DNA of 32,000 bases from positions 2,520,001 to 2,552,000 of the forward strand of contig JAIZWK010000001.1 of assembly GCA_021498095.1 (NCBI GenBank), in the 5' to 3' direction. The position numbers and the translations under genes were made by a program. This DNA is from Candidatus Harpocratesius repetitus. Its GTDB lineage: Archaea; Asgardarchaeota; Lokiarchaeia; Sigyniarchaeales; Promethearchaeaceae. The notes below the pieces were generated by a model. The model was not told where the DNA came from. It saw nothing but the letters and a program-made list of their open reading frames with translations, and made no database searches. Shown here in pieces: positions 14,681 through 32,000 of this stretch; the stretch's first letter is position 1; each line of letters begins with the position of its first letter.

Positions 14681-14730
14681 TCTTTCTTAATCTCTCTTAA
14701 TCTCTCTTAATCTCTTTTAATCTCTTTTAA
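14681..14730. repeat. 10-nt tandem repeat x5 spanning the HEPN stop codon
   Basis: tctttcttaa tctctcttaa tctctcttaa tctcttttaa tctcttttaa. Confidence 0.85.
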
Positions 14731-15129
14731 TATTTTATTGACGTCATTAATAAAATATCTAAAATCAGATAAATTCTCTCTTATAAATTGAAGAACCCGC
14801 TTTTGATTAATTTTTCCATATTGATGAACTAAAATATTCCTAAATCCTTTCATTGCTTTTAAATTTGATATGTTTGTAAGGTGGTTTTGTAGCAGATCAA
14901 AGAGATTTTCATCATTTTGGGGTGGTCCAAGATGTAAAAACTTCACAAGATGATAAGCTATATCTATCACATTTTCAATACAAATTTGAAGTTGCCGCTC
15001 TATCGCACGACGTTTTTCGTTTGATTTATAGAAAATCTCATCTTCTTTAGGAATAAATTCATTTAATTCTTCAAGATAATTCTCTAATTCTGAAATTTTT
15101 ATTGATATTCGCTCAATTTCTATTTTAAT
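14707..15129 (-). CDS. hepT: HEPN (DUF86/HepT-like) RNase toxin
   Basis: GFRNILVHQY gives the RX4HxY motif. The frame is open upstream of the called GTG (14970) through IERISIKISELENYLEEL...RRAIERQLQICIENVIDIA to a TAG just past 15129, so the probable start is ATT at 15129, overlapping the MNT stop. Confidence 0.85.
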   Translation of the reverse strand: MKIEIERISIKISELENYLEELNEFIPKEDEIFYKSNEKRRAIERQLQICIENVIDIAYHLVKFLHLGPPQNDENLFDLLQNHLTNISNLKAMKGFRNILVHQYGKINQKRVLQFIRENLSDFRYFINDVNKILKEIKRD

Positions 15130-15505
15130 CCACCTCTAAAAATATTTTAAAATGTGGATAGAAATCGGTAAAAGCGCGGTAGGTCTTCTCATAAATATCG
15201 CATACTTGCTCAAAATCCTTATTTATCATCAGTTTTCCATGTGTTAAAACCTCATGTTGAACATAGAGGGGCAAATCAGTGAAAAATTGAATATCTAGTT
15301 TCGATGGAAAATTTCCTTTATAATACAAGACTTTTTGAAGAGGAATACCTTTAACATGCAGAAACGGTACTAAGCAAATATCAATATCGTTATATTCATC
15401 TTCGCGAACACTACTTCCATATAAAATTAGAGCTACAATGTCAGGATCCTTTTTTACTTCAGATAGTAAACCGTTCAATAAATTTAAATCTGAAGATTGT
15501 AGCAT
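15125..15505 (-). CDS. mntA: Minimal nucleotidyltransferase (MNT) antitoxin
   Basis: ILYGSSVREDEYNDIDIC has the GS...DxD motif, and LPLYVQHEVLTHGKL follows. It lies directly upstream of the HEPN gene. Confidence 0.88.
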   Translation of the reverse strand: MLQSSDLNLLNGLLSEVKKDPDIVALILYGSSVREDEYNDIDICLVPFLHVKGIPLQKVLYYKGNFPSKLDIQFFTDLPLYVQHEVLTHGKLMINKDFEQVCDIYEKTYRAFTDFYPHFKIFLEVD

Positions 15506-16070: not shown

Positions 16071-19000
16071 TTATGAAGACTTGGTTGAATCATTAATTAT
16101 TCTCTTTAAATTTTGAAGCCATTTATTGATATCCTTCGCTTGATCATCCCAATATGATTTTTCTGGCTTTTTAACATATTCAGCAGCCCAAATCTGCACC
16201 TCTTGGTTAAATCGCTTAGCATACTCATTAAATTCTTCATTTGTATGAAACTGACCTTTATCTATAAAGGACCGTAATTTGCGAATTGAGTATGTCTCAA
16301 AAAGATATTTACAAAAGACATAGTAGGGGAAGACTTGCATACTTGGATAGGGGAGGATAACAACATTCCAATTTGTTTTCTTTTCATCTATCTCTATAAC
16401 TAGCGGATGAATTGAAATAAAAATTTGTAAATCTTCAAAACTTGATAATTTCTTAAAATATTTACTCTTCATATAATAAACCAATTTGTGCTGAGGTTCA
16501 TAACGTTCATATTTATTTGGTTGTATATCGAATTTGTGAAAGAATTTATTCAATTTTTGGTTTTTTTCATGGAGAAAAGCAAATTCGATCTGGAGAAATT
16601 CCAATTTAGAGTTGATAGGATTGGTTTTATGATCTCGTAGAAATTTAATAAATTTTCCCACCAATTTTTCTTGCTGTGATTTGCCTAATCCATCACCGAA
16701 AAATATATTAAAATTTTTCAGAAAAGTAAACAATAAATCGTGAAGATCTCTTTCTGTTATTAAAGTCGAATATTTGATCTTTTTATAAAAAAGAGTCAAG
16801 AAATAATCTAAGATAAAATCTTGGGCTTGAAGATTATTCTTTTCTAGTCGAGGCCGGAAAAAGATTGAATAACTTGCTATTTCAGTATTCCCTAATTTGA
16901 TTTTCGATGAAAGAGATGGATAAGGATTAAATGGTAAGGAAAAGAGTACTTCTTTATTGTCTTGATAATCTTTTTCATTTAAAGGAATAAAATAATTAAA
17001 ATCTGTAAAACTTTTCTTAATTTTTTCGATATTTTGCTCATTAATTATTTTTTCTTTAAAGTTTTCAAGCGAAGGGGTGAATTCGATAATATTTTTAATA
17101 AAATCTTCTTTTGAACGAATTAATGAAAATAATTTCGAATAACCTTTTTTAGAGAATAGTTGCAGTAAATCGGCAATAATAAAGTCTTCTACTGTTTTAA
17201 ATTCATATTCTTTGAGAATTTTAAATAAAATAGATATATTTGGTTTCAAAATTTGATAAAGAGAATAAATTCTCGATTTTTCACTAATTTCCACAATTCG
17301 CTGGTAGAATGTAATGAATCTTGTGTATTCTTTCAAAATGCTTGTATGGGTAAGAAATTTAGAATTATTCAATCTATCTTCGATTTTTAGATTGTTTTTC
17401 AATTTACCATTATAAAAGAAATGAGAAAATATTATATTTAATTCTTTAATAAGACTATTTTTCTTTGATGGAGTTAATTCCTTATTTTGTAAATTGCCTG
17501 GTGGCTCTATGAGTCGATAGATCTCAATTTTTAAATCAATTAGTTTGGTATGCGGAAAATAGTTAGGATTTAATGAATGAAAATATGAATATGAAATCGA
17601 TTGTGTGTGAAATGAAAGATTATAAACCAAGGGAGATTGTTCAAGAAATTTCTTGTTATTTTTCTTATCAAACTCTAATAATTCATTCCATCCAATAGAA
17701 TAGAAGATTTTTATTGGTATTAAGTTTGAATCTATATTTTGGTGATGGAGTAGCTGAATTGAAGACCCAATCAAGGGAATTTCGCGAAAAACTGATATAA
17801 AACTTTTCAAAAAATTTTCATAAAACAGTTCAAAGAGCAACAATCCATTCTCTGAAAATCCTTTGGAATTTTTCCATTCCTCTAAAAATTTTGTTTGCTT
17901 GATTTTCTCATTATAGAAATTGTTTAACTTTTGTGCGGAGATTAGTTTTATTTCAGGTTTATAATCTGATTTTTCATAGTTTTGCTTGATGTTTTGATAG
18001 TATCTCTCAATCTCTTGGAATATTGAAGAAAAGGAAACCAAAGGCAATCCATCTAATTTTATTTTTGAAAGATTAGAATTGTTAGAAAGAAATTTTGCAA
18101 TATACATCCTGAAAAATAGATCTAGATGAGAAACATTTCCATTTACAAGCATTTCTTGAGGAATTATATTTATTTCTGTTCTAAATGTTTTCTCCATCGA
18201 TTCTCCTTGTAAATTTTTCCACGTTATACGAATATTCCAATTTTTTTCTATTTGACATATATTTTCATAAGGATTTTCGCTAACTTTAGCTTTAATCACA
18301 ACTTTATCAATAAAAAACAATTTAAATTTACCACTATCCACATTCATCCATAATAACTCATGGGGATTCGGAATTATTTCCTTTTCGTCCAAGAAATTTA
18401 CAATTTCTTCATCCACAAAAAGAGTACCATGGTCGTTTTGTATTTTAAATGCGATTTCTTCTAAAAACTTATATTGATCTTCTGAATTATGCACTATTCC
18501 TATTCCGTAACTTTCTAGCATTCTTAATTCGGATTGAAAGAAATATAGTAATTCAGCCTTTAAGATCATATTGTTTCTTGAACTCAATTTCTCGTGTACA
18601 ATTCGTTCACTTGCATAGAAGCAAAAAGAAGTTTGATCCCCAGGTAGAATCGTGAATTTAGTCTCAATCTCGATTTCTTCACCGATTTTTTCAGAAATTT
18701 GCTTTTCAGCATAAGGATCTTTAATTAGATCGGGAAAATTTTTTTTACACCATAAAAATTGATCTTCGGAATAATAAATTAAAATTAGGTGATCATTATG
18801 AATTTTTAGTATTTCACCAGTTTTGACATATTCATAGGGATTATCAGCATAACCAATCTTGGAAAAAATCAATTCTCGTATTTTCTCTTTTAAAAATGCA
18901 GATGAAAAATCATTTCCAAGGATGTTATGTAAATTACTAGAAAATAATTTAGGTAATGAGAATTTTTTTGGGATTTTAAGAAACTTAAATTTCGGCATTT

Positions 19001-19832
19001 TTGGCGAAAAATTAGAATCCAATTTGAGAGTTAGAAAACATATTTCGCGAATCGTTGAACCAGAAACTTCAGGGCTGTATCCCATAAATTTTCGTGTATC
19101 ATCTTCAGGTTTGATTAATTTATTTTTCGAATTAATTATTTTTTCATAGAAATTTTGGATAATTAGAGGTGGAATCGGTAAAGAACGTTTCATTTCCCAA
19201 TTCAACTTTCGAGATAATAAAAAGCAAAAGAATTCATCCAGATCATTAAAATCTGCAATTTTCAATAAGGCAAAAATCGCACTCTGTTCTTTAGAAATGG
19301 AAATTTCATTATTTTTTAATGCTTTTAAACCTTTTTTCGTTATTTTATATTGATTTAAATAATAGATTCTATTTCGAATATAACTTTCTAAGTGATTTAG
19401 AATGTTTTTGATGGAGAATTTTAGATAATAAGGATCAGATGAATTTTTATCATGATTTTGGAATAAATTTGCATTTTTTTTTTGATTTATATCATTGTAT
19501 CTGGTATTTTTATTTACATATTTTGAATTTTGAATATTTTGAAAATGAAATTTAAGTTCGGAAATATTCGATTTGAAATTTTCTTCGTCAAAATTATCAA
19601 CCAAATCAATATATCCTTGGATTTCTAAATCATTAAAAATATTTTCAATGTGATTTTTCATTGTAATTTTAAGAGTGGAAAAAAAAAGTACTTCATAGGC
19701 AGTTATTTTTTCAAAGTAGGAAGATAACTCTAAAATCAAACGTTCCAATACATTAAGAGGTCTTTTGTATTCTAAATAGAGATTTTCAATATGAAAAAGT
19801 TGGCAGATTATTTTGGTTTTAAGCAAGACCAT
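16071..19832 (-). CDS. 1253-aa hypothetical protein, possible N-terminal winged-helix domain; last gene of the operon
   Basis: Uninterrupted 3.76-kb ORF starting 23 nt after the helicase stop. RPLNVLERLILEL...IENIFNDLEIQGYID and YKITKKGLKAL resemble wHTH elements. Confidence 0.8.
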   Translation of the reverse strand: MVLLKTKIICQLFHIENLYLEYKRPLNVLERLILELSSYFEKITAYEVLFFSTLKITMKNHIENIFNDLEIQGYIDLVDNFDEENFKSNISELKFHFQNIQNSKYVNKNTRYNDINQKKNANLFQNHDKNSSDPYYLKFSIKNILNHLESYIRNRIYYLNQYKITKKGLKALKNNEISISKEQSAIFALLKIADFNDLDEFFCFLLSRKLNWEMKRSLPIPPLIIQNFYEKIINSKNKLIKPEDDTRKFMGYSPEVSGSTIREICFLTLKLDSNFSPKMPKFKFLKIPKKFSLPKLFSSNLHNILGNDFSSAFLKEKIRELIFSKIGYADNPYEYVKTGEILKIHNDHLILIYYSEDQFLWCKKNFPDLIKDPYAEKQISEKIGEEIEIETKFTILPGDQTSFCFYASERIVHEKLSSRNNMILKAELLYFFQSELRMLESYGIGIVHNSEDQYKFLEEIAFKIQNDHGTLFVDEEIVNFLDEKEIIPNPHELLWMNVDSGKFKLFFIDKVVIKAKVSENPYENICQIEKNWNIRITWKNLQGESMEKTFRTEINIIPQEMLVNGNVSHLDLFFRMYIAKFLSNNSNLSKIKLDGLPLVSFSSIFQEIERYYQNIKQNYEKSDYKPEIKLISAQKLNNFYNEKIKQTKFLEEWKNSKGFSENGLLLFELFYENFLKSFISVFREIPLIGSSIQLLHHQNIDSNLIPIKIFYSIGWNELLEFDKKNNKKFLEQSPLVYNLSFHTQSISYSYFHSLNPNYFPHTKLIDLKIEIYRLIEPPGNLQNKELTPSKKNSLIKELNIIFSHFFYNGKLKNNLKIEDRLNNSKFLTHTSILKEYTRFITFYQRIVEISEKSRIYSLYQILKPNISILFKILKEYEFKTVEDFIIADLLQLFSKKGYSKLFSLIRSKEDFIKNIIEFTPSLENFKEKIINEQNIEKIKKSFTDFNYFIPLNEKDYQDNKEVLFSLPFNPYPSLSSKIKLGNTEIASYSIFFRPRLEKNNLQAQDFILDYFLTLFYKKIKYSTLITERDLHDLLFTFLKNFNIFFGDGLGKSQQEKLVGKFIKFLRDHKTNPINSKLEFLQIEFAFLHEKNQKLNKFFHKFDIQPNKYERYEPQHKLVYYMKSKYFKKLSSFEDLQIFISIHPLVIEIDEKKTNWNVVILPYPSMQVFPYYVFCKYLFETYSIRKLRSFIDKGQFHTNEEFNEYAKRFNQEVQIWAAEYVKKPEKSYWDDQAKDINKWLQNLKRIINDSTKSS

Positions 19833-19855
19833 ATGATTTTTTCATCTCTTCTATT

Positions 19856-22800
19856 TCATTTTGATCTTAATTTATATTTATAACCTTTTTTCCATTGGAA
19901 TATTTCAATATGACCATCGGAAAAGATTTCCAATTCTAATAAACGTTTTGAAGTGATTGAACGGTAGAATCTCTTTGATTTCTTTGATGTAGCAATATAA
20001 CCTTCATAATTTTCAATTTTTTCATTCATCTCTTTATGATTGGAATATTTAATCATTCCGATCTCTTTTTTCCTTTTATTTAGAGTTCTATTTTTTTCTA
20101 TTACAAAATTTAATACTCCAATCGAAAATGTACCGAAAAAATTGATATTTAAATTGTTGTTTTTTGTAAAATTTATTATTTTATTTAGAATAGATGCTAA
20201 TACATCGTCATCGGCATATTCAGGTTTTTTTTTATTAGGGAATTCGTGAATGATTAGCTTGAGGAGTGAATCCGCATCTATATTTAATTGTTTGTATGTG
20301 CAAGATAAATAACGTTCTGAAGGTCTGAAATTTGGATCAAGAGGGGGTAATTCCGATATTTCAATCTGACTGGAATCAAATATCAAATAACCTAATTTTC
20401 TTTTTTGAATTTCTTTTTTATATTTTTTAAAAGTTTCCTCTGTAAAATTGTCATTCGAAATTATATAAGAATTCGATTTTATTGCCCTTAATATTAAGTA
20501 TTTATCATCATATTCTCCTAATGGTGCTTCATGGACATAAGGTTTGTCTAAATATGCGAGATAAGCTTTTTTGTTATCAATAAAATTCCTCAAATTAGTG
20601 CTAAATACAACTTCAACTTCATAACCCGCATTTCGACAGTATTTTTCTGCTAATTGTATATTCGAAAATTGAGCAGATTTAGATTTGGTACTTGCCCGAC
20701 ATATATTTGGACCATCGAGAACCACAGATTTTATGGTTTTATCTTTGAATATTTCCAATGAATTAAGCGCTTTTCTGGGATCTAACAAAAAAAGAGGCGG
20801 ATTGGTCTCACCTTTATGATTTGAAATTACATATTTTATCAAATTTTTAAAAATCCTGTTTTTATTGTTTTTTTTTGATAAAGAATTAAAAAATTCATGA
20901 TCTCCAATTATAAATAAATTTTGTCGACATCGTGAGAAAGCTACGTTTAGTCGTTGAACGCTTTTCAAAAACCCAATCGTTTGATATTTGTTTGAGCGTG
21001 TTAAAGGGACAATGATAATTTCTCGTTCTTGTCCTTGAAACCGATCCACAATACTTACTTTAATTTCCACGGATTTTATATCTCTATAGTAATATAATCC
21101 TTTTTGGCATGTGATTTCTTTCATTTTTTTTAGTTTATCACGAATATCAAAAAATTGCGATGTATAAAACGTAATAACACCAATTGTAAGAGGGTGTCTT
21201 TCATCAAATGGAATATTATTCTTTTTTTGATATTCACGGTATCTCCATAAATTGTTAACCCCTTTTTTTTTTATATCATCTCGTATTTGTAAAAGTAATT
21301 GACATACGATATAGCTTTCTAATATATTGCATTTTGAAGTTGATTCAGGTTTATAAATCTCTTGCCTTAAATTGGGCTGAAAATAGGATGTTGATAAAAA
21401 CGTCATTAACGCAAAATAATCATTTTCTTTTGAATTCGCGTTGAATCTTGATTTAGAAATATTAAATCCGTGATAATTTGTAATTTCTGCAGATAATAAT
21501 TCCTTATTGTATACATTTTCACTTAGAAAATTAGCAATAATGGGAGGACATCGATATTGATAATTTAACATAAATTTTCGTGAAGATTCGATGCGATTAA
21601 AGAAATAATGATAAATACTACCTAAAATTTCGATAAATTCTTCGAGAATTTTAATAAAAGATCGATCATATTCCACCAATCTATATATTTCTTCCCACTC
21701 CTTATCAGTGAATTTTTCCCCCCCAACATAATGTTGTCCCTCATAAATCATCTGAAATTTTTCCATTATGAATTCAATAAAAGGCGAAGTTTGTTTTTTA
21801 GAGTTTTTTTGAAAATGACTTTGGGATTTTTGTCTTTTATTAGCCCTTTTTTGTAATTTTTGAGAAAATAAATTTAGTTTTTCTTTTAATTCATCATCTA
21901 ACATTTTAAAACGATATTCCAATGTAATCTCAATTTCATCAACATCAATATAAGGTGGTAGCTGATTTTGATCCCCAATAATTATCCATTTATAAGCCCG
22001 CGTAGCGGGAATTAAAAATTCTAGTACAGTAGCTTTTGACGATTCATCTATTATCATTACATCAAAATTCTGTAAGTATCTATTTTGATCATAAATCCAT
22101 ACGACACCACTGGAAGTTCCAAAAACGAGGTTGGCTGAATTTATAATTGTATCGTCAATTAAGAACGGATCATTTTCAACATTTATAAAAAACTCTTCCT
22201 GGATTACATTCAAATTAGTCTTTTTTTTTGACTTTTGCTTTTCTGGGATTTTATTATGAGAAGTTAACTGATAGTATCTCAAGATATCTTCTTGCATGAA
22301 GTTTTTCCAGTTCTTTTTAATATTCTCCATTGTATATATACGTAATTTATCCTCAATTTTGGCTGGTCTCCCAATCCTTACCATTTGAATTCCAAGATTT
22401 GGTTTATTGTGTAACCTTTCGATAATATTGTCAACTGCGACATGTGTTGGCGCAACGACTAGTACTCTTAACCCATTCCTACAAAATTGCTGTACCATTT
22501 CAATGATCAAAGTGGTTTTACCTGAGCCCGGTGGACCTTGCATTAACGTCAAATCAGGGTTAGATAACGCAGTTTTTAATGCAGTATATTGGTGTAATGT
22601 TTCTTGGTTCTTGGAATTGATTTCGGAATTGATTGGTAAGATCTCTTGAGGTTTATATTCGGTAAAAACCTCTGGTCGGAGAATTTGATCTACTAAATCC
22701 TGTAAGGGTGTTAAAATAGGTGTTTTAAGAAGATCCAAGGCATTTCTTTTGCGATAATGTAAAGTTAAATTTTCATATAGTATAACTTTACCACCTTTAG

Positions 22801-23839
22801 ATAGTTCTCCCGCGATTTTTAGTAATTCTTTCAAATTTTCTTTTTTTTGAAATATAAAAGTGGAGCCCAGTTCATTGTTAAAATCTGAGTCTTCAACCTC
22901 TACGATGATGAATTTCTGTCGTTTATTATTTTTTGATTTTTCACCATATGGAATTTTAAGTTTTGTTCCAGTTTGAGATAATAATTTAGGAGGATAAGAT
23001 TCAAACCAAAGCTTAATATCCTCAATATGATTTAATTCTGAATCTAATCTTAAATTAAGCTGTTCTTCATTTAAACTCTCAGTATTATTTAAAAGAATTT
23101 CTCCTTTTTCGGCAAAATCTTTTTCAATATAATTAATGGAAAGATGGTTGAATTCAGCTTGTGGCTTATAATCATCATTGACAATCGATTGAAATTCTGC
23201 ATCCATATAATAATCAAAGGGTTTAAATTTCCTTAATAAAAATTCAGGATATTCATTATTTAAAACATTTATATTTTTATAAAAGTTTTGACGTAGATAT
23301 TGCTTCAATAAGCGAAAAATTGTATTTTTTAAAGTTTCTGGATTAAAATATCCTTCTTTTTTTAAAACACATAAATAATGGTCGGAAACATTCAATAAAT
23401 TCCAATTTCCTGTTGATATTACACTAAAACATAGAAGTGAGTCTTGATCGTAAGTATAGCTTGTTCGAAATTTCAGACCTAATTCAGGAGAAATCATTTC
23501 AATATTCAATCTATGATAGGTTTTATCATTGGATAGGAAATTTTTAACTTCTTCTATTTTTTCCACGATTTTCTGATTGATTACATCATTATTAAATTGG
23601 TCTTTATTCAAATTTATTTCAATAGGGCTTGTCTCTTTGGTTTGTTTAACGAACGTAGAAAAAATTAATTCAAAATGAGCTTCGATCGATGGGGAATCCA
23701 AAATTTTATCTAAAATGTTATTATTCTTAATTCCTTCTTTCAAATAATTTATAACAAAAGTCCATTTCTCTTCTCTTTTAATCGATTTCTCTAAACTAGA
23801 GTTATCTCGAAAAAAGTCAAAAAAATAATTTTCATCCAT
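19856..23839 (-). CDS. UPF1/DNA2/NAM7-like SF1B helicase fused to a Zc3h12a/Regnase-type NYN (PIN-fold) ribonuclease
   Basis: Helicase motifs: QGPPGSGKTT, VLVVAPTHVAVDN, IIDESSK, IIGDQNQLPP, YQYR, SIVDRFQGQERE, RLNVAFSRCR. NYN motifs: VVLDGPNI, YDDKYLI and IISNDNF (about 20400-20740). Confidence 0.9.
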   Translation of the reverse strand: MDENYFFDFFRDNSSLEKSIKREEKWTFVINYLKEGIKNNNILDKILDSPSIEAHFELIFSTFVKQTKETSPIEINLNKDQFNNDVINQKIVEKIEEVKNFLSNDKTYHRLNIEMISPELGLKFRTSYTYDQDSLLCFSVISTGNWNLLNVSDHYLCVLKKEGYFNPETLKNTIFRLLKQYLRQNFYKNINVLNNEYPEFLLRKFKPFDYYMDAEFQSIVNDDYKPQAEFNHLSINYIEKDFAEKGEILLNNTESLNEEQLNLRLDSELNHIEDIKLWFESYPPKLLSQTGTKLKIPYGEKSKNNKRQKFIIVEVEDSDFNNELGSTFIFQKKENLKELLKIAGELSKGGKVILYENLTLHYRKRNALDLLKTPILTPLQDLVDQILRPEVFTEYKPQEILPINSEINSKNQETLHQYTALKTALSNPDLTLMQGPPGSGKTTLIIEMVQQFCRNGLRVLVVAPTHVAVDNIIERLHNKPNLGIQMVRIGRPAKIEDKLRIYTMENIKKNWKNFMQEDILRYYQLTSHNKIPEKQKSKKKTNLNVIQEEFFINVENDPFLIDDTIINSANLVFGTSSGVVWIYDQNRYLQNFDVMIIDESSKATVLEFLIPATRAYKWIIIGDQNQLPPYIDVDEIEITLEYRFKMLDDELKEKLNLFSQKLQKRANKRQKSQSHFQKNSKKQTSPFIEFIMEKFQMIYEGQHYVGGEKFTDKEWEEIYRLVEYDRSFIKILEEFIEILGSIYHYFFNRIESSRKFMLNYQYRCPPIIANFLSENVYNKELLSAEITNYHGFNISKSRFNANSKENDYFALMTFLSTSYFQPNLRQEIYKPESTSKCNILESYIVCQLLLQIRDDIKKKGVNNLWRYREYQKKNNIPFDERHPLTIGVITFYTSQFFDIRDKLKKMKEITCQKGLYYYRDIKSVEIKVSIVDRFQGQEREIIIVPLTRSNKYQTIGFLKSVQRLNVAFSRCRQNLFIIGDHEFFNSLSKKNNKNRIFKNLIKYVISNHKGETNPPLFLLDPRKALNSLEIFKDKTIKSVVLDGPNICRASTKSKSAQFSNIQLAEKYCRNAGYEVEVVFSTNLRNFIDNKKAYLAYLDKPYVHEAPLGEYDDKYLILRAIKSNSYIISNDNFTEETFKKYKKEIQKRKLGYLIFDSSQIEISELPPLDPNFRPSERYLSCTYKQLNIDADSLLKLIIHEFPNKKKPEYADDDVLASILNKIINFTKNNNLNINFFGTFSIGVLNFVIEKNRTLNKRKKEIGMIKYSNHKEMNEKIENYEGYIATSKKSKRFYRSITSKRLLELEIFSDGHIEIFQWKKGYKYKLRSK

Positions 23840-23892
23840 TTCGTTAAACTTCCTTAATTTTTAAATGATTTAAAATTCTTGATCGAATATTT

Positions 23893-26800
23893 CTAATAAA
23901 TACTTCCAATAATTTCATAGTCAAACACGGTTCCATTTTCTTGAGTTTTTTCCTTTATATTTTTGTATTTTATTATTATTTGCTTACTGGAATTGATATA
24001 AATATAACATTCAATAGGTTCTCGACCATTTTGAGAATTAATTTCAATGTAAAACGGGGGACGGTTAACTTCTTCTAATATATATTTTTGATTAAGTTCA
24101 TGGAATGATGAAATTTCATCAATATCAACAATATGGTCTAATATTCCATCTTCTTGGAGATTTTTACTAATATTTTGAAAAATTGGGTGTTTTGAGAAGA
24201 TTATTAGTCGAAGCTCTTTAATTACAAATTTTAAACCTTCTAAAGGCTTGATACATATTTTACATAAATTATTACTAGGAATTATTGGAGATAAATCCAT
24301 TGGGATGAATTTTAAGCTACCTTGATTCATTCCGAGCAATCCTAATTCTTCTGACAAATTATTTTGGATAATAGGGTTTTTTTCAATTTTAGATAAACCA
24401 AGAATTAAGAATTTTGAATCAGATTGAGATGATAAAATCTTAAAATTCTTCTTATTACTTATTATATCCGTTAAAATATCTTTGAAGTAGTCTATCCTTA
24501 AGGATTGCCCCGATAAGAGAATAAAAAATTCTTTATTCTCACTTTTTTGTAATGTATAATTTTCTAGTTGAGAACGAATATTTTCTACTATTTGATTACC
24601 TTCCCTTATGCAAAATTCTTTAAACATCTTTTTTGGATTAAACTGAGATTTTTTTTCAATTTTTGGCTTAAATTTTTGGAAATAGGAGGGAATAGAATTA
24701 AAATTCTGATGTTTTAAATCTTTAAGAAGAAAAAATCGGATTTTTTGATTCTCTTTTAAATCTTTAAGGTTTTTATTCCATTGCAATTTTTTTTCAATAA
24801 AATCGCCTCCATTTTCACATTCAAGATAATTGCTTAATATAACCTGTTCTTTTTTTTTATTAATTGACACAATTAAGTGAGATGATTTGAAGAAACTCGC
24901 CCCCCAATCTATAATGATAAAATTCTTTTGCTTTCTTGAATCAATCAATTCTTTTTCTAATTTAAATGGGATATTATGTAAATGGGAATATGCAGCGACT
25001 AGCATCTCATCATAACAAACAATTTCATTTTCTTTGAGTCCAAAAAGGTTTGAAAATGTTTCTTTCAAAAAATTCTTAAATGAATTACTAGCTTTTCTTG
25101 GAACAGCAATTTTAATTTTTTGAATTTGGAAATTTGATAAATTTAAATGTTTTTTTACAAGAAAGAAATATTTAGAAATGAGATCGTGGTAATTTACTTT
25201 CTGTCCTGCAATATTGACTTTAACACTCCAATTTTCTCGATACAAATGTGATTTAAGATCATGAATAAGTAATATTGAGGATAAATTAGCTAATTGAAGA
25301 ATTTTATTATCATCAATTATACTTACTCCATGTTGCGGATGGAACATTAATCTTGTAGGAATCTCAAGATATTGATTTTTAAACCAATTTTTATAATTTT
25401 CATTATCTTTCTCATTGGAATATGCTATTTCTAAACTAGGAATTAAATTTACATTTTTTGTATTTTGTGATATTTCTGCATATGCTAATTTTGTGGAATA
25501 TTCTCCAAAATCTATCAGTAGATCTACATTTCTTTTTTCCTTATTTATTTGGTTTACTTTTAATTCTGCATCATGGTTTATTTTAGAATTTAAGATTTGC
25601 CATTCCTCTTGATTAATTTTATTATTTGGAAAAAATTCAAAGTAGAATCTGAGAGAGGCAATATATTGAGCAAGATTTTGGAATAAAATACGATATCTAT
25701 TGTGTTTTTTTCTCATTAAAGAGTAAGAGTTAATGAAATCATAGGAATATCTTGTATTTTTAACATCTTCAATAAAATTGTAAAGTGTATTTATCATATC
25801 ACTGGAAAAAACACATAACGGTGAAATAAAACAGAGAAACTTGAAAATTGAAAAAGAAAAAAGAGAATCTCCAAAAATAATTTTGGTAGTTTTATTATAA
25901 AAATTCAATTCTTCGGGAGTATTAAATTCTAATAAACCAATATGAAAATTTTTATCCCCATTTTCTAACTCTAAAGATACTGACTGTTTTTTCGAGATAT
26001 CGTCATAATAACTTGTTTTAAAATGGATTTTTTTAATGTCGGTTGGTTTTATTAGATTTTTTCCAGGAAACATAAAAAAATACGGACTAACTGTAAGATG
26101 AAAATTAAAATTATCCCATTGCCAGGAATCACATTCTAAACATTCTAGCATAATTGAGGAATATTGTTCCCATTTTAAATTTGAAAATGTTTCCTTGATA
26201 ATGTAAAAAATTTTCGCAGAGTCTTGAGGGGGAGCCCAATTTTGAAATGCGTGAATTTTGTTAAAGAAATATATCATCGTAAGAATTGAACTATTTAACA
26301 TTTTTCGCCAGATAATTTCTGGATTTTCGTTAAATATCATTTCCCTACTAAAGCAAAATGTGTCTAAATCAAATATTATTGAACTATTGGATCCTTTAAG
26401 ACTATTTTGATTAATTAAGTAGCCAAAATTTAACGATTTATCTTTTTTTCGCTTTTTTTGAATTGCTCTCTGAATGGGTAGATATAAGATCGGTTTGTCA
26501 GAAATATATTTTTCAATCACATTCATTTCATTCGAATTAAGGAATTTATTAGAATATAGTAATTTATATATTAAGTGTAAAGCATACTCTTCATTATCTA
26601 ATTCATTTAAAATACTATCTATATGTGCAATTATATCCGAAATTGAAGACATCGGATAATTTACCCACAATCTCATTATATATATTAATTTTTCTCGATC
26701 AATTAATTTTCGAACATTTATCAATACATCATGAGCAATTTTTCGAATATTTAACGATTCGTGGGAAGTTAATATCTCGTAAAAAATTTCGATATCGTCT

Positions 26801-26979
26801 ATTCCACCTTTTTTAAGAAGATCTTCCAAAAAATTCAATATATGTTTTTGTTCTTCTGAATTAACCTTAAGCCTATTACTTGAAAAAAAAGAACGGAAGA
26901 AAATTGCTTTGTTCTTTGCAAGTCCATCTTTAGGAGAATAAATGAATTCAGGAATTGCATTGTGGTTTTTTGTTCTCAA
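23893..26979 (-). CDS. 1028-aa protein with a degenerate Hsp70/actin-fold ATPase-like domain in its C-terminal half
   Basis: LLIDFGEYSTKLAY, IPTRLMF, IAVP, YDEMLVAAYS, IIIDWGASFF, NGGDFIE and ILLSGQSLRI occur in the order of Hsp70 GIDLGTT, TPS, ITVP, NEPTAAA, FDLGGGTF, GGEDFD and LVGGSSRI. Confidence 0.7.
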   Translation of the reverse strand: MRTKNHNAIPEFIYSPKDGLAKNKAIFFRSFFSSNRLKVNSEEQKHILNFLEDLLKKGGIDDIEIFYEILTSHESLNIRKIAHDVLINVRKLIDREKLIYIMRLWVNYPMSSISDIIAHIDSILNELDNEEYALHLIYKLLYSNKFLNSNEMNVIEKYISDKPILYLPIQRAIQKKRKKDKSLNFGYLINQNSLKGSNSSIIFDLDTFCFSREMIFNENPEIIWRKMLNSSILTMIYFFNKIHAFQNWAPPQDSAKIFYIIKETFSNLKWEQYSSIMLECLECDSWQWDNFNFHLTVSPYFFMFPGKNLIKPTDIKKIHFKTSYYDDISKKQSVSLELENGDKNFHIGLLEFNTPEELNFYNKTTKIIFGDSLFSFSIFKFLCFISPLCVFSSDMINTLYNFIEDVKNTRYSYDFINSYSLMRKKHNRYRILFQNLAQYIASLRFYFEFFPNNKINQEEWQILNSKINHDAELKVNQINKEKRNVDLLIDFGEYSTKLAYAEISQNTKNVNLIPSLEIAYSNEKDNENYKNWFKNQYLEIPTRLMFHPQHGVSIIDDNKILQLANLSSILLIHDLKSHLYRENWSVKVNIAGQKVNYHDLISKYFFLVKKHLNLSNFQIQKIKIAVPRKASNSFKNFLKETFSNLFGLKENEIVCYDEMLVAAYSHLHNIPFKLEKELIDSRKQKNFIIIDWGASFFKSSHLIVSINKKKEQVILSNYLECENGGDFIEKKLQWNKNLKDLKENQKIRFFLLKDLKHQNFNSIPSYFQKFKPKIEKKSQFNPKKMFKEFCIREGNQIVENIRSQLENYTLQKSENKEFFILLSGQSLRIDYFKDILTDIISNKKNFKILSSQSDSKFLILGLSKIEKNPIIQNNLSEELGLLGMNQGSLKFIPMDLSPIIPSNNLCKICIKPLEGLKFVIKELRLIIFSKHPIFQNISKNLQEDGILDHIVDIDEISSFHELNQKYILEEVNRPPFYIEINSQNGREPIECYIYINSSKQIIIKYKNIKEKTQENGTVFDYEIIGSIY

Positions 26980-27027
26980 ATCTTTACACTCTGGTACAAA
27001 TTATATTTTTATCAGCGAAAAATAAAA

Positions 27028-28647
27028 TCACATTATTTCAATTCCACCTTTTTTGGGTTTGTGAATTCGAGATTCTTCTTCAGAAGCAAGAACAGCCTCA
27101 TGATTTTCAACTTTAACTCTTAATAGTTCAATCATCTCTTTTTTGGTTTCAGAAAGAGGTTTTGTTTCATAAATTACTTGCTTTAAGTCCTCTTGCGTAA
27201 AATCTCTCTCTTCATCATTAAAAGCAATATACATTGCCTCTTTGATAACTTGTTCTATCTCTGCCCCAACAAATCCTTTTGTTAATTCGGCCAGTTCTTC
27301 GAGATCATATTTATTTGGATCTCTTTTCACATTTTTAATATGGACCTTAAAAATACTCTCCCGTTCTTTTGAGTTTGGCAAATCAAGAAAAAACACTTCA
27401 TCAAAACGACCTTTTCGCATTAATTCTGGTGGCAATTCATCAACATTATTAGCAGTTGCAATTACAAAAACAGGTGAGGTATTTTCTTGCATCCAAGTTA
27501 AAAAGTTCCCCAATACTCGATTAGAAACTCCTGCATCTAAATTGCCTCCTCCGCTTACAAATGCTTTCTCAATTTCATCAATCCATAAAATAGCGGGAGC
27601 AGTAGCTTCTACAAGATGTAGTGCTTGCCGGAGACTCTGTTCTGTAGCACCTACATAAGAGCTATATAGTGCTCCAATATCTAATCGCAGTAATGGCATT
27701 TTCCAACTTCCCGCGATAAATTTTGCTGTGAGTGATTTTCCCGTTCCAGGGATCCCCAGCAAAAAAACACCTCGTGGTTGTGGGAGTCCATATTTTAGTG
27801 CTTTTTCAGAAAATGAATCTTTTCTTCGATTTAGCCATTTTTTTAGTACTTCCACACCTGCTAGATATTGCGGCACCTCATTTGGGGCAAAAAATTCTAA
27901 AGCTCCAGATGCTGCGATAATTCCTTTTTTGCCTTTTACCACAATCTCAACCATTTTTTCAGGATGTTTATTCTCTAAAACTAGTGCTAAATTAAAAAGC
28001 CGTTCTGCTTGGTTCATTGTTAATCCTAAAGAAGATCTGACAATTTGCTCCATTATTGACTCTGGAATTTCTATTTTTCCTGGTAAATTAAGATTATTTA
28101 ATATTCGAGTAAATTTTTGATTTAATTCCTCTTTTGTGGGAGGACGGATCGTTTCAATTTCGAAGAGATCTGTTAGTTCTCGAGGAATTTTCTCTGAATG
28201 AGAAAGAAAGATTACAGAACATTTACTCTCTTTGATATAAGGATGTAACCTTTTTAATGCACGAATCAATTTTTGCGAATAATCTATATCTGTATTCTGG
28301 ATATAAAAATGAAAATCAGGGAAAATTAGTAAATAGTTTTTTCCTTCTTTTGCTATCTCCATGATGTCTGTTTGGAAAGCATCAAGGAAATTTTGTGCTG
28401 ATAAATAGTGAGGAAGTGGGCTTGCATTTTCTTGAGTTAGATGGAAAATCCATTCGTTTAAATTTGACCAAAAGATATTTTCATCAAAAACATAAGCTTC
28501 TCGGTTAGATCTCGTGGCAATTTCTTTAATTATTGCTAAAACTCGCTCGGTTTCGTCACTGACTAACCAGAGATAAGGGTATCTTGCCTTTACCCGTGCT
28601 TCAAGACTCCGTTTAAGTTCAAAATCAATACTATTAACTGAATTCAA
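27028..28647 (-). CDS. Ycf46-like AAA+ ATPase
   Basis: Walker A GIPGTGKS, Walker B ILWIDEIE, sensor ATANNVDELPPELMRKGRFDEVFF. The N-terminal region (RYPYLWLVSDETER, LIFPDFHFY) is Ycf46-like. Confidence 0.9.
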   Translation of the reverse strand: MNSVNSIDFELKRSLEARVKARYPYLWLVSDETERVLAIIKEIATRSNREAYVFDENIFWSNLNEWIFHLTQENASPLPHYLSAQNFLDAFQTDIMEIAKEGKNYLLIFPDFHFYIQNTDIDYSQKLIRALKRLHPYIKESKCSVIFLSHSEKIPRELTDLFEIETIRPPTKEELNQKFTRILNNLNLPGKIEIPESIMEQIVRSSLGLTMNQAERLFNLALVLENKHPEKMVEIVVKGKKGIIAASGALEFFAPNEVPQYLAGVEVLKKWLNRRKDSFSEKALKYGLPQPRGVFLLGIPGTGKSLTAKFIAGSWKMPLLRLDIGALYSSYVGATEQSLRQALHLVEATAPAILWIDEIEKAFVSGGGNLDAGVSNRVLGNFLTWMQENTSPVFVIATANNVDELPPELMRKGRFDEVFFLDLPNSKERESIFKVHIKNVKRDPNKYDLEELAELTKGFVGAEIEQVIKEAMYIAFNDEERDFTQEDLKQVIYETKPLSETKKEMIELLRVKVENHEAVLASEEESRIHKPKKGGIEIM

Positions 28648-28697
28648 ATTTATTAACTCCTTTTCATCATTTTTGAAAAAAAATAATTGCTATCTAT

Positions 28698-29279
28698 TTA
28701 AAAAGTTTTCCAATCAAAATTATCATATAGAGACGTTCCTGTACCGATAACTTTCCCTTTTTCTATTATAATTTCCATATTTCTCTTTGGAATGAAATCT
28801 TGCAGAGAATAACGACTTGAAAACAGAACTATTTGTTTATTTGCAGAACCAATAATTCCTATTGCAACTCTCTCATGATGTTGATACGGGCCAGCAATTA
28901 TTACATCAACATATCGGGATATTTTGTTAAAACTTGGGATTAATTTCAATTCATCTAAGGTTAAACCTGTGCTAATAATTACAGAAAGCCCTAATTGGTA
29001 GGCTTTCTTACTTATCTCATAAACGGCTTTTGGTTGGAGGAAAGGTTCACCTCCAGAAAGCGTAATCCCCTCAATGCTCGAATTTTCGGTTGAAAATTCA
29101 AAAAGCTCATCAATATTCATCAAATAACCCCCATTTTTATCGTGAGTTTGAGGGTTGATACACCCGTGACATTTTTTTTCACATCCTTGAAAAAAGATAA
29201 CTAATCTTTCTCCTGGTCCGTTTACTGATGATTTTGCAATCACACTATGTAATCTCACTGTATTATTCTGGGGAATCAC
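28698..29279 (-). CDS. NrdG-like radical SAM protein (single 4Fe-4S cluster)
   Basis: SSVNGPGERLVIFFQGCEKKCHGCINP contains CxxxCxxC; also GITLSGGEPFLQ and VDVIIAGPY. Confidence 0.9.
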   Translation of the reverse strand: MIPQNNTVRLHSVIAKSSVNGPGERLVIFFQGCEKKCHGCINPQTHDKNGGYLMNIDELFEFSTENSSIEGITLSGGEPFLQPKAVYEISKKAYQLGLSVIISTGLTLDELKLIPSFNKISRYVDVIIAGPYQHHERVAIGIIGSANKQIVLFSSRYSLQDFIPKRNMEIIIEKGKVIGTGTSLYDNFDWKTF

Positions 29280-29285
29280 ATAAAA

Positions 29286-29855
29286 TCACCGTTTCATTTT
29301 TTGTCGTACATTACTTCGTGTATATTGCTGATTTCTTGTAGTATTTCTTTGGGTCGCTTGTTTATGTCGTGTAAAACTAATAACTTTTCCCATCCCTTTT
29401 TCAAAGTCTTTTAAATAAGATCGGCAAGTCAATTCGGGCATTGCTCCTGCCTCCACAATAATTCGGTTTTCATTTGGAAGCACATCGATTTGATATGTCA
29501 ATCTCTGAGTATTTCTTCCATTTCCAATAAGTTTTTCAAAAAACAAACGATAGCCTCCTATAATTGCTCGTTTATTTTTATAATGAAATCCTTTATTTCT
29601 TAGAGTATGTTTAGCATGATTCAAAGTATAAGCAGGTAGAATTTGAGAATTAATTTCAGTTAATCTTTGATTAAGCCGATTCCTAGTTAAATTTTGATGT
29701 TCATCTTGAGTACGGACGCTTGAAGCTATACAGTAATGAGTTCCAGTTGATTTGATTTTTAGATCAGCTAAACTTAACTGCTTTATTGCATCTTCTAAGC
29801 ATTCACGGCAATTATATGTTCCTTGTTCAACTTCTATAGTAATTATTCCCGACAA
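29286..29855 (-). CDS. Putative DUF1257 (Ycf35)-DUF2997 fusion protein
   Basis: The N-half (MSGIITIEV..LEDAIKQL...AYTLNHAKHTLRNKGF) resembles DUF1257. The C-half (IDVLPNENRIIVEAGAMPELTCRSYLKDFEKGMGKV plus a Q/T/R-rich tail) resembles DUF2997. Position next to a Ycf46-like AAA supports both. Confidence 0.6.
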   Translation of the reverse strand: MSGIITIEVEQGTYNCRECLEDAIKQLSLADLKIKSTGTHYCIASSVRTQDEHQNLTRNRLNQRLTEINSQILPAYTLNHAKHTLRNKGFHYKNKRAIIGGYRLFFEKLIGNGRNTQRLTYQIDVLPNENRIIVEAGAMPELTCRSYLKDFEKGMGKVISFTRHKQATQRNTTRNQQYTRSNVRQKMKR

Positions 29856-29978: not shown

Positions 29979-30659
29979 TCATTGAATAATCGGGACACAA
30001 TCCAACACCTTTTTAAAACCAAATTCGAGATATATTACCCCAAAGATAGCTTCGACCAATGTGCTTTTCTCATGGTTTAGATTTTTCACGTTTTTCGGAT
30101 CAATCATCCTGGTTCGCTTTAGTCTATATTCGTATAATCCCCATTTATCACAAATGGTTGCCAAATGATCGTTATTAACAACATTCATCCGCTTTTTTGT
30201 CAGTTCGCCAATTTTGGAAATTGAAGAATCCCAAAAGGATTCAATAGTAGCTAAATCTAAAGCAGCATCACCAATTAATGCCAGAGTATCTCCTACGTCC
30301 CCTATATTGCACAATTCCTTAAAATCCACGCTTGGAAAAGCAGAATTCTCCTCTTTCTGAAAACGAATTTGTAGTTGTTCGAATAAATTGTTAAGACTAG
30401 GGCGACATAGCGCTAAAAAGACCATTTCTGGTGTTTCGAAATGTATTCTTAGTATTTTTTCCAATTTTGGCAATAAAACGGATTCAATCAGTTCTATTGA
30501 TTTCAATAAATTTTGTAACTCATCCAAGAAATTCCTAAGAGTTTTTCGGATGTTAGTATATTCTTGTGGTGTTTGGTCAAGTTGTAAAGCAATAAAATTT
30601 TTTAATTTCTCGGTTTTTGTAATCAATCCTATTGCATTCCATTTTAGTCGTTTTTCCAT
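29979..30659 (-). CDS. Ribonuclease III-domain protein without dsRBD (Mini-III-like)
   Basis: LEKILRIHFETPEMVFLALCRPS, TLALIGDAAL and KSTLVEAIFGVIYLEFG match RNase III elements. The protein ends right after the catalytic domain. Confidence 0.8.
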   Translation of the reverse strand: MEKRLKWNAIGLITKTEKLKNFIALQLDQTPQEYTNIRKTLRNFLDELQNLLKSIELIESVLLPKLEKILRIHFETPEMVFLALCRPSLNNLFEQLQIRFQKEENSAFPSVDFKELCNIGDVGDTLALIGDAALDLATIESFWDSSISKIGELTKKRMNVVNNDHLATICDKWGLYEYRLKRTRMIDPKNVKNLNHEKSTLVEAIFGVIYLEFGFKKVLDCVPIIQ

Positions 30660-30898: not shown

Positions 30899-32000
30899 AT
30901 GAAAATCTCAATCCAAAAAAAGTTTGAACAATTATCACAGATTTATACTAGAGCATTTGATGCAGAATTTTTGAACACTTCAATGCTCTCGGTTGTGCGT
31001 GCTTATCAGCAAAAAAACATTGCTGATTTAGAAATATGGACATTCATCTGTGCGATCTCAAATTATCAATTAAGTGTGACTAAAAATCTAATTCCAATGA
31101 TGACTGCATTAATGAATCGATTAAACCAAGAAAATTTGTATTATATTGATTTAGTCTATCATCCAGATAAGGCGGAGCAAATTTTATCTTCTTTTCAATG
31201 GGGGAAACATAACTTGGGTTATATTCATCGTTTTTTTCGATATCCCCAGCTGATCATCATAAATAATCAAATTTTGACAATTATAAAAAAATACGAATCT
31301 TTGGGTAAATATATTGAATATTTATACGATTTAGCTCTAAATGCAGATCCCGAATATCCACTCCGCTATATCTTGAAAAATTTTACTGAAAAATTAAGTG
31401 AAGGACTGCCACCAGATTTTCCTCGAGGAATAATTCCAAAATTTCGCAAAGACAATTCTACCGGTCCTATGAAAAGGCTTTGCTTGTTTTTCCGCTGGAT
31501 GGTACGGCCGTATCCAGATTTGCAGAGATGGAACTTTTTTGACCCTCAACATTTGCTCATCCCCTTTGATTCAGGAATAAAGAGAGTTCTGCAACGAGCA
31601 TTCAAAATATCATTAAGAAAATCAGCAAAATTGGAAGATGTTCTTAAAACAACTCGTTTTCTTAAAGAAATTAATCCCAAGGACCCAGTTAAATATGATT
31701 TTATTTTGAGCCGGCCTGCAATTGCTGGTTATTGTCAAAAAGACAAGGATAAAAATTTTTGCTATTACTGTCCGCTTTTTGAATTATGTAGTGAGGCAGC
31801 AAGATTACCTGAAGAAGGAATCGTAAAACCCTTGAGTTCTAAACATGAATCTGAACTCTTTCAGAGATTTTTAAGGTTAAATATTAAGAAATTTGATTTA
31901 GTGGAAACGGAAGTTCCTTTAGGGAATCGTAGGGCTGATGCAGTGCTTCACGTTAAAAGAAATGGGATTTGGGTTGTGGAAGTTGAAAATGAATTGAATT
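30899..32000 (+). CDS. DUF2400 (TIGR02757-like) protein fused to a 4-Cys cluster and a PD-(D/E)xK-like domain; runs off the window end
   Basis: Manual translation from the ATG at 30899 is open to 32000: PMKRLCLFFRWMVR, LLIPFDSGIKRV, DPVKYDFIL, then CQKDKDKNFCYYCPLFELC, then ETEVPLGNRRADAV...IWVVEVE. It is absent from the ORF track, presumably because no stop falls in the window. Confidence 0.82.
   Translation, partial: MKISIQKKFEQLSQIYTRAFDAEFLNTSMLSVVRAYQQKNIADLEIWTFICAISNYQLSVTKNLIPMMTALMNRLNQENLYYIDLVYHPDKAEQILSSFQWGKHNLGYIHRFFRYPQLIIINNQILTIIKKYESLGKYIEYLYDLALNADPEYPLRYILKNFTEKLSEGLPPDFPRGIIPKFRKDNSTGPMKRLCLFFRWMVRPYPDLQRWNFFDPQHLLIPFDSGIKRVLQRAFKISLRKSAKLEDVLKTTRFLKEINPKDPVKYDFILSRPAIAGYCQKDKDKNFCYYCPLFELCSEAARLPEEGIVKPLSSKHESELFQRFLRLNIKKFDLVETEVPLGNRRADAVLHVKRNGIWVVEVENELN

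Follow-up and report, generated by a model that had tools for sequence, protein, structure and literature searches.

An Asgard archaeal operon that joins a Ycf46/Hsp70-type core to a UPF1-like RNA helicase: a candidate RNA-targeting conflict system

This report concerns six open reading frames (ORFs) in a 32,000-nucleotide stretch of the genome of Candidatus Harpocratesius repetitus (contig JAIZWK010000001.1, positions 2,520,001 to 2,552,000; from here on, the window). The six genes, which we named g1 to g6 in order of transcription, all lie on the minus strand, between positions 16071 and 29855, and they form, usually together with an adjoining RNase III gene, one conserved, Asgard-specific operon. 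Judging from sequence, we would put the probability at roughly 0.5 that this operon encodes a conflict (defence) system that is driven by nucleoside triphosphates (NTPs), controlled by chaperones and targeted at RNA; more broadly, it probably acts on RNA, be it in defence or in silencing. Either way, a conserved multi-gene system has been defined in the group of prokaryotes most closely related to eukaryotes, the Asgard archaea, and it unites families whose eukaryotic counterparts cooperate in RNA silencing and surveillance (helicases like UPF1/MOV10, RNase III, NYN domains of the PIN-like type, and Hsp70).

A six-gene operon conserved among Asgard archaea

The original prediction described six co-oriented, closely spaced genes, and both the ORFs (Table 1) and the gaps between them (6, 50, 48, 53, and 23 nucleotides, going from g1 to g6) turned out to be located exactly as first given. 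The same gene order was repeated on at least 10 further Asgard contigs, at 20 to 56% identity; the loci in question are, besides the window, L010/L011 (Promethearchaeota), L012/L013, L047 (a marine-sediment metagenome record), L048, the P0006 contig, L014 (a Heimdallarchaeota assembly), L049, L051, and L052, with L047, L048, and L049 having been located with a g4 profile. Fragments of the operon (L017 and L018) were present in two species genomes. BLAST supported the orthology of all six genes, and the contigs that encode close relatives of g3 (53 to 70% identity), which stem from Asgard metagenomes, hold the full gene order. Across loci, junctions within the operon range from -16 to 53 nucleotides, with stop and start codons overlapping in several cases. 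The two halves of the operon (29855-27028 and 26979-16071) thus co-occur on at least 10 contigs, in line with the single unit originally proposed, and the g3/g4 junction at which they meet measures between -4 and 48 nucleotides.

The genes have diverged at clearly unequal rates. Identity between window genes and their orthologues is 46 to 56% for g3, 37 to 47% for g2, 29 to 44% for g5, and 20 to 39% for g1, as opposed to 20 to 27% for g4 and 19 to 32% (in the N-terminal part only) for g6. This agrees with the proposed combination of a conserved small-gene core with large divergent genes, except that the Hsp70-like g4 should be counted as core rather than as a variable part, since in related bacterial clusters (see below) the Hsp70 gene travels with those for the AAA+ protein, DUF1257, DUF2997, and the radical-SAM enzyme.

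Despite its conservation between distant loci, the operon is rare. In a census based on species-representative genomes and a few dozen contigs, a g4 profile identified operon-type g4 in approximately 3 out of 400 Asgard species genomes, with most other matches representing housekeeping DnaK; a profile was required here, as a single-sequence search of the 400 Asgard genomes with window g4 recovered only g4 itself. A full-length homologue of g3 was found in none of 30 close relatives. The operon therefore does not behave like a housekeeping locus, and its patchy presence, in combination with flanks that are non-syntenic between loci, argues against a housekeeping function and is compatible with an accessory, horizontally spread system.

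An RNase III gene adjoins the operon in seven of the nine loci that have enough flanking sequence and is likely to be an accessory seventh member. The window copy is co-oriented with g1 and located 123 nucleotides upstream of it, with an oligo-T run and TATA-like runs in the intervening region. Its product has an N-terminal helical extension and no domain for binding double-stranded RNA (dsRBD), and shares 47% identity with the RNase III encoded beside the L012 operon. Loci of the L012 type contain an additional linked gene, encoding a protein of 375 amino acids with a weak NYN match. Among L012, L013, L047, and L048 (72 to 89% identity), the RNase III gene and this NYN-like gene switch side and orientation around the operon, and several contigs of this group end within about 200 nucleotides of the end of g6, which suggests that the operon is bordered by repeats or by junctions that can invert.

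Table 1. Coordinates of the operon, the adjoining RNase III gene, and the second locus
Feature	Position	Strand	Description
g1	29286-29855	-	189 amino acids; DUF1257-like (weak) and DUF2997 fusion, basic tail
g2	28698-29279	-	193 amino acids; small NrdG/PflA-like radical-SAM enzyme
g3	27028-28647	-	539 amino acids; Ycf46-type classic-clade AAA+ ATPase
g4	23893-26979	-	1028 amino acids; Hsp70-like protein
g5	19856-23839	-	1327 amino acids; MkoA/UPF1-like superfamily 1 (SF1) helicase fused to NYN RNase
g6	16071-19832	-	1253 amino acids; fast-evolving orphan
RNase III-domain gene	29979-30659	-	226 amino acids; PF00636 1.4e-14
HrAgo1 cluster	L050:9830-13414 and L009:1465-11758 (G000:C1 about 3523830-3537760)		about 1 Mb from window operon

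Gene products and homology to a bacterial core cluster

Distant full-length relatives of g3 (approximately 41% identity) are encoded in bacterial gene clusters (L043 to L046) that comprise genes for an AAA+ protein, WD40 or FGE-sulfatase proteins, a GrpE-like protein, a lidless Hsp70 (approximately 525 amino acids), DUF1257, DUF2997, and a radical-SAM enzyme. Our literature searches revealed no published description of this bacterial core. Homology with the Asgard operon extends beyond the AAA+ protein: the CxxxCxxC and GGEP motifs of the radical-SAM enzyme are identical, DUF2997 is recognisable, an Hsp70 is present, and in both cases the core is joined to large variable partners. On the other hand, the Asgard operon has a putative DUF1257 and DUF2997 in one fused gene and its Hsp70 behind an extension of approximately 480 amino acids, it contains no GrpE-like, WD40, or FGE genes in the window, the place of WD40/FGE being taken by a giant orphan and an SF1 RNA helicase that may or may not carry NYN, and it is linked to RNase III and sometimes to Piwi. 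On the basis of these sequence relationships, the operon is best filed as an Asgard variant of the bacterial Ycf46/Hsp70/DUF1257/DUF2997/radical-SAM cluster, rather than as a typical member, with a Mokosh-like helicase as its putative effector. It provides a functional handle on the widespread bacterial and archaeal cluster of Ycf46, Ycf35/DUF1257, DUF2997, a private Hsp70, and an orphan radical-SAM activase, and its variable partners, being recognisable RNA enzymes, offer simple biochemical read-outs.

The best conserved protein, g3, consists of an N-terminal domain of approximately 280 amino acids and a single AAA module (PF00004 AAA, 1.3e-30; AAA_lid_3, 4.7e-12), which contains Walker A, Walker B, a YVG pore loop, and an arginine-rich second region of homology. 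Over 7000 full-length relatives, with the JGI name 'SpoVK/Ycf46/Vps4', share about 40% identity with it, and maximum-likelihood analysis places the operon-type AAA+ proteins in a clade (support 100/100) whose long branch lies next to the bacterial type. An assignment as IetA of the IetAS system was rejected: only the generic AAA module was matched (4e-30), the NCBIfam IteA score of 88.8 bits compares with a cut-off of 510, and the operon contains no protease gene, whereas IetAS includes the subtilase-like protease IetS.

The radical-SAM enzyme, g2 (Fer4_12, 2.1e-26; Radical_SAM, 1.3e-9), has intact CxxxCxxC and GGEP motifs, and residues C33, C37, C40, and G76 to P79 are invariant in nine sequences, one of them bacterial. 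Both motif and fold would fit an activase of a glycyl-radical enzyme, but scores against NrdG (TIGR02491; 1.5e-24, 86.7 bits) and PFLA (71.6 bits) stay below the respective cut-offs of 126.1 and 231.75, and neither the operon nor the window encodes a partner such as NrdD or PflB, so that an activase pair was not accepted. Nor was g2 considered to be a prokaryotic viperin, as the pVip match (8e-10) covers only positions 7 to 84 of the 257-position model and this 193-residue protein scores 32.5 bits against an NCBIfam viperin cut-off of 180.

The ORF of g1 begins with a TTG start codon that is preceded by a GGTGA ribosome-binding site. The protein was predicted to be DUF1257/DUF2997-like, and it has neither a Pfam match of its own nor a hit in a sequence search of the PDB. 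Nevertheless, the orthologues in L014, L051, and L052 carry PF11211 (DUF2997; 1.9e-10) in their C-terminal half, window g1 aligns with these DUF2997-bearing orthologues from end to end, and an hhalign comparison with bacterial DUF2997 (E value of 0.017) places the invariant cysteine in register; the assignment of the C-terminal half as DUF2997 can thus be regarded as sound. For the N-terminal half, DUF1257 is plausible only: the hhalign match to bacterial DUF1257 is weak (36 columns, E value of 0.023, probability of 2%), and position, order of the halves, and a shared 'MS' start are compatible with this assignment without being proof of it. Cys19 and Cys144 are invariant among eight orthologues.

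Window g4 likewise lacks a Pfam match of its own, and its assignment as Hsp70-like derives from its orthologues, which match PF00012, and from the family profile, which matches DnaK nucleotide-binding domains at 3e-9. A structural model generated with AlphaFold2 (AF2), in which our confidence is low to moderate (mean predicted local distance difference test score [pLDDT] of 59.7), gave a Foldseek match (5e-14) to DnaK/BiP that spans about 600 columns and covers the nucleotide-binding domain (approximately residues 483 to 870; 24370-25533) and the beta-rich C-terminal region that follows it. The first 480 or so residues precede the Hsp70 part, begin with a confidently predicted helical repeat, and contain conserved tryptophans (W224 and a W-x-P motif, W248-x-P250). 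While a search of the Atlas with this region returned no match, residues 131 to 264, which hold the family-invariant tryptophans, aligned with residues 382 to 513, in the central region of the HEAT-WD40 partner from the bacterial cluster (hhalign E value of 9.9e-5, probability of 58%), the helical part being the only detectable one. The description of g4 as a degenerate Hsp70 applies to the window copy and not to the family: operon orthologues retain the canonical motifs DFGN..T, DEAT, DIGGGTTD, and GGG, whereas window g4 has DWGASFFKS and SGQS in place of the last two, as its degenerate phosphate-2 and adenosine motifs. Its ATP-binding motifs not being intact, we ruled out window g4 as a canonical Hsp70 (DnaK). 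No relatives were found in a pattern scan of genome contigs or among 2.9 million viral contigs. As a separate observation, one Asgard family (f15; L036 to L042) encodes g4-like proteins of about 900 amino acids with degenerate Hsp70 motifs in 9 of its 12 genomes; these genes mostly stand alone, or are divergently paired with a g5-like helicase gene and a half-length g6, with no radical-SAM, AAA+, or DUF2997 genes alongside.

An uncharacterised N-terminal region of 400 amino acids precedes the helicase core of g5 (approximately residues 416 to 981; 20897-22594), which is followed by a Regnase-like NYN RNase domain (residues 1037 to 1152; 20384-20731); the corresponding Pfam matches are AAA_11 (3.1e-37), AAA_12 (1.2e-34), and RNase_Zc3h12a/NYN (5.3e-9). 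Residues 309 to 1010 match the PADLOC model for MkoA (PDLC03920) at 4.8e-96, orthologues match MkoA models at 2.4e-103 and 3.9e-103, and a further match was obtained with the UPF1/IGHMBP2-like family TIGR00376 (7e-58). All helicase motifs (GPPGSGKT, DESS, GDQNQLPP, and VDRFQGQE) are intact, as are the acidic residues of the NYN domain (LDGPN, DDKY, and SND), which makes for an active-looking endoribonuclease. The helicase and NYN RNase domains of the proposed effector are borne out, with the restriction that the fusion is confined to this genome: g5 proteins of orthologous operons lack the NYN tail, and word-based searches among proteins of near, greater, and smaller length identified no relatives of it.

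Finally, g6 had no match in Pfam, PADLOC, NCBIfam, or PDB, and the Atlas gave no usable lead. Its family is restricted to Asgard archaea and tiny, with 33 representatives among 1.84 billion proteins. Only the N-terminal 170 or so amino acids are conserved, and orthology was established from position and N-terminal similarity (25 to 32%); going by its sequence pattern, this conserved part may be a winged helix, the AF2 model (mean pLDDT of 50) being unusable. No common C-terminal tail was seen on the three large proteins, g4, g5, and g6.

A candidate conflict system and its resemblance to described systems

In the mechanism that we propose, the operon products would associate physically, with the AAA+ protein g3 (presumably an unfoldase), the Hsp70-like g4, and the radical-SAM enzyme g2 assembling, licensing, or resetting the helicase-nuclease g5, such that the effector would be under the control of a chaperone-type core that also includes g1. 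Contact with the target would fall to the rapidly diversifying g4 and g6, RNase III might supply or process double-stranded RNA, and the output would consist of the degradation of foreign RNA or, in an abortive mode, of all RNA.

A role in defence is suggested by the MkoA match of g5 (4.8e-96), the IetA match of the AAA domain (4e-30), and the genomic surroundings of several loci. Directly downstream of window g6, a HepT-like RNase and an MNT-type nucleotidyltransferase are encoded (a toxin-antitoxin pair; 14707-15505), followed at a distance of a further 4 kb by a PIN-domain gene that is preceded by a small ORF (10959-11402), confirming the neighbouring toxin-antitoxin pairs of the original prediction. 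The L014 operon lies in a clear defence island (L014:1535-8686), with genes for DpnII-type restriction-modification, for an HNH protein and a nuclease of EVE/NucS-like type, and for a protein with a CARF domain, and a caspase-like peptidase is encoded near the L052 operon. That the target would be RNA is indicated by the NYN fusion, the NYN-like protein of 375 amino acids, the RNase III gene at seven of nine loci, and a Piwi gene and rnc in L010 (see below). Distribution, in turn, is of the accessory type, given the absence from all 30 close relatives, the presence in about 3 out of 400 Asgard species genomes, and the differing flanks. Also consistent with a conflict system are the second locus, around HrAgo1, and the contrast between the slowly evolving g3 and g2 and the fast g4 and g6.

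Several observations weigh against this interpretation. PADLOC and NCBIfam gave only single-protein partial matches, and no system fits as a whole. The surroundings of the window operon are mixed, with an acyl-CoA dehydrogenase gene, a YdjC gene, and an eRF1-like gene among the toxin-antitoxin genes. The canonical ATP-binding motifs have been lost from window g4, so that this copy may be in decay or have a different mode of action. Moreover, the occurrence of g4-like genes in 9 of 12 genomes of family f15 looks more vertical than one would expect of a defence gene. Lastly, the NYN domain is not a conserved member, leaving the other operons without an obvious built-in nuclease besides RNase III.

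A complete match to a described system had not been expected and was not found either, the partial matches being confined to MkoA, IetA, and pVip, and no account of the gene set turned up in the literature searched on DUF1257/DUF2997, on Ycf46 with radical SAM, on Hsp70/GrpE conflict systems, and on Asgard Argonaute neighbourhoods. Of the known systems, Mokosh, in which a MkoA helicase acts with the PLD nuclease MkoB (type I) or both are fused in MkoC (type II), is similar in that g5 and its orthologues contain a MkoA-type SF1 helicase (4.8e-96 to 3.9e-103) and in that helicase and nuclease are paired. It differs in having a PLD nuclease, instead of which a fused NYN RNase occurs in this genome only; the other five conserved operon genes have no counterpart in Mokosh, and the N-terminal region of MkoA is matched only in part. 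Since none of the six proteins matched PLD/MkoB in Pfam or PADLOC and the match to MkoC (5e-23) covers the helicase part only, we rejected the operon as a Mokosh system.

The MoxR-vWA ternary systems and GTPase-Hsp70-tubulin conflict systems described by Kaur, Burroughs, Iyer, and Aravind in 2020 (PMC7159879) share with the operon the combination of NTP-driven chaperone-type parts, including Hsp70/GrpE, with variable effector or sensor proteins, as well as a patchy spread. That paper does not describe the gene set of the operon, which has a classic-clade Ycf46 AAA+ protein rather than MoxR or a GTPase, lacks a vWA domain, and carries a putative DUF1257, DUF2997, and an NrdG-like radical-SAM enzyme.

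Argonaute-linked loci and alternative readings

Elsewhere in the same genome, a second locus (Table 1) encodes paralogues of g3 (39% identity, 4e-106) and g2. The ORF upstream of this second core matches HrAgo1 (PDB 8r3z) at 100% identity along 817 residues, which identifies the genome as that of 'Ca. Harpocratesius repetitus FW102' and the locus as the published HrAgo1 cluster. To our knowledge, HrAgo1 is the only known prokaryotic Argonaute that belongs to the PIWI clade and performs RNA-guided RNA silencing. The genes follow each other in the order rnc, hrAgo1, MkoA-like helicase, 375-amino-acid protein, PLD-like protein, radical SAM, AAA+, DUF2997, and 191-amino-acid protein, where the helicase is an SF1 protein of 1276 amino acids (MkoA match of 2e-80), the PLD-like protein has 762 amino acids, a coiled coil, and a weak PLD match (25.5 bits, below the cut-off), and DUF2997 is encoded by a 72-codon ORF (2.3e-7). 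RNase III, an MkoA-like SF1 helicase, a nuclease-like protein, a radical-SAM enzyme, a Ycf46-type AAA+ protein, and DUF2997 are thus common to this cluster and the window operon, which differ in that the HrAgo1 cluster contains a PIWI-like Argonaute, lacks both the Hsp70-like gene and g6, and has a dsRBD in its RNase III. Its AAA+ protein belongs to a different clade from the operon type, on a long branch, and relatives of that protein (P0118 and P0089) were found in unrelated contexts. In the radical-SAM gene (L009:8725-9337), CxxxCxxC is located upstream of the first ATG, GTG, or TTG, in a frame that opens just after the preceding stop; the gene must either use a non-canonical start (ATT or ATA) or be damaged.

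The part of the HrAgo1 paper considered here (Bastiaanssen et al. 2024; PMC11217426) names the flanking rnc and helicase as candidate guide-generating factors and mentions these two neighbours of hrAgo1 only. The cluster extends beyond them, and its core and MkoA-like helicase are concrete candidates for the missing factors in guide biogenesis or loading. Adjacency to Piwi/Argonaute, which did not figure in the original prediction, was seen at one other locus, L010, where a Piwi gene, an rnc (RNase III and dsRBD), and a gene for a 638-amino-acid protein directly precede g1. Two of the three RNase III genes of the genome adjoin a core of this kind, namely those in the window and at the HrAgo1 locus. 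The third (G000:C1:58330-59190; L055:10331-11191) has an unrelated neighbourhood, with none of these families nearby, and is 67% identical to the rnc beside hrAgo1, which may be a recent duplicate of a housekeeping rnc, or the reverse.

These loci are the basis of the main rival to a conflict system, the other alternatives (housekeeping, two systems, mobile element) being less likely: the operon might provide an accessory machine of Argonaute-based RNA silencing rather than stand-alone defence, and its helicase, RNase III, nuclease, and chaperone-type ATPases would work in trans with HrAgo1 or HrAgo2 in guide RNA generation, in loading onto an Asgard PIWI-like Argonaute, or in recycling. Armitage/MOV10L1, Dicer, Zucchini, and the Hsp70/Hsp90-assisted loading of the RNA-induced silencing complex (RISC) are the eukaryotic analogues. 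Considering the evidence on both sides, we think this unlikely, though it deserves to be taken seriously. Immediately downstream, hrAgo1 is followed by a paralogous core with the MkoA-like helicase and the PLD-like protein, and rnc adjoins it upstream; this rnc and the helicase are the genes flagged in PMC11217426; L010 repeats the association with Piwi and rnc; and, by a rough estimate, two Argonaute-linked loci among approximately 12 greatly exceed what one would expect of random placement. However, no Argonaute is encoded within the 32 kb of the window, hrAgo1 being about 1 Mb distant, so that the operon was not classed with the pAgo-associated systems (short or long pAgo operons), and Piwi is missing from the available flanks of L012, L014, L047, L048, L051, and L052. 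In addition, the AAA+ protein at the HrAgo1 locus is no close paralogue of g3, that locus contains neither the Hsp70-like gene nor g6, and the Piwi of L010 is unrelated to HrAgo1 by BLAST.

One could go further and speculate that a chaperone-assisted small-RNA pathway of Asgard archaea prefigures the eukaryotic RNA interference (RNAi) and PIWI-interacting RNA (piRNA) machinery, with the window operon as an Argonaute-independent or trans-acting branch. The core, an SF1 helicase resembling Armitage/MOV10/UPF1, RNase III, and a nuclease of NYN or PLD-like type would then cooperate in making guides, in loading PIWI-clade Argonautes (HrAgo1, for example), or downstream of these proteins. We consider this wider scenario rather improbable.

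A cellular role in protein or ribonucleoprotein remodelling or in RNA quality control, in which an AAA+/Hsp70 bi-chaperone services a helicase-RNase on aberrant RNA, seems improbable too, and somewhat harder to reconcile with the data. The core does resemble an Hsp70 and AAA+ bi-chaperone and has been kept across many bacterial phyla, g5 combines a UPF1/IGHMBP2-like helicase (TIGR00376, 7e-58) with a PIN-like NYN nuclease, for which UPF1 with a PIN/NYN nuclease offers a loose likeness, and most genomes of one Asgard family contain g4-like genes. A cellular function is difficult to square with the absence of the full operon from 30 out of 30 close relatives and approximately 397 out of 400 Asgard species genomes, with non-syntenic flanks, with the very fast evolution of g4 and g6, and with a g6 family of only 33 representatives in 1.84 billion proteins. 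Among known machines, the DnaK-GrpE-ClpB disaggregase likewise pairs an Hsp70-fold ATPase with a pore-loop AAA+ translocase; it differs from the operon, which encodes neither a J-protein nor GrpE, whose AAA+ protein has a single ATPase module and whose window Hsp70-like protein has a degenerate ATP site, and in which RNA enzymes and a radical-SAM enzyme are linked to the set.

It is also highly unlikely that two independent systems happen to lie side by side, one of DUF2997, radical SAM, and AAA+ (29855-27028) and the other a Mokosh-like helicase-nuclease with partners of its own (26979-16071). The f15 genomes, with g4-like genes that stand alone or diverge from g5 and a short g6 without g1 to g3, and the HrAgo1 locus, which has radical SAM, AAA+, and DUF2997 without g4 or g6, would fit such a division; yet the halves are collinear, with the short g3/g4 junction of -4 to 48 nucleotides, on at least 10 diverged contigs (20 to 56% identity), Hsp70 is integral to the bacterial AAA+/DUF/radical-SAM cluster, and the N-terminal region of g4 aligns to the scaffold partner from that cluster. 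Equally far-fetched is a mobile-element cargo or maintenance module (for example, the helicase and DNA-binding replication/partition set of an integrated plasmid or virus). The patchy distribution, the contigs of about 14 kb that start and end at the same genes (L047, L048, and L013; L012 ends 214 nucleotides past g6), pointing to border repeats or variable junctions, and the RNase III gene and 375-amino-acid gene that differ in place or orientation from one close relative to another would fit such an element; yet the flanks examined showed no genes for an integrase, a replication initiator, or a capsid, 2.9 million viral contigs contained no g4 relative, and the helicase, an RNA-type member of the UPF1/MkoA family, is joined to RNases.

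At the far end of the window, beyond the RNase III gene and divergent from it, a gene of the DUF2400 family (30899-31999; 5e-30) runs off the end of the sequence.

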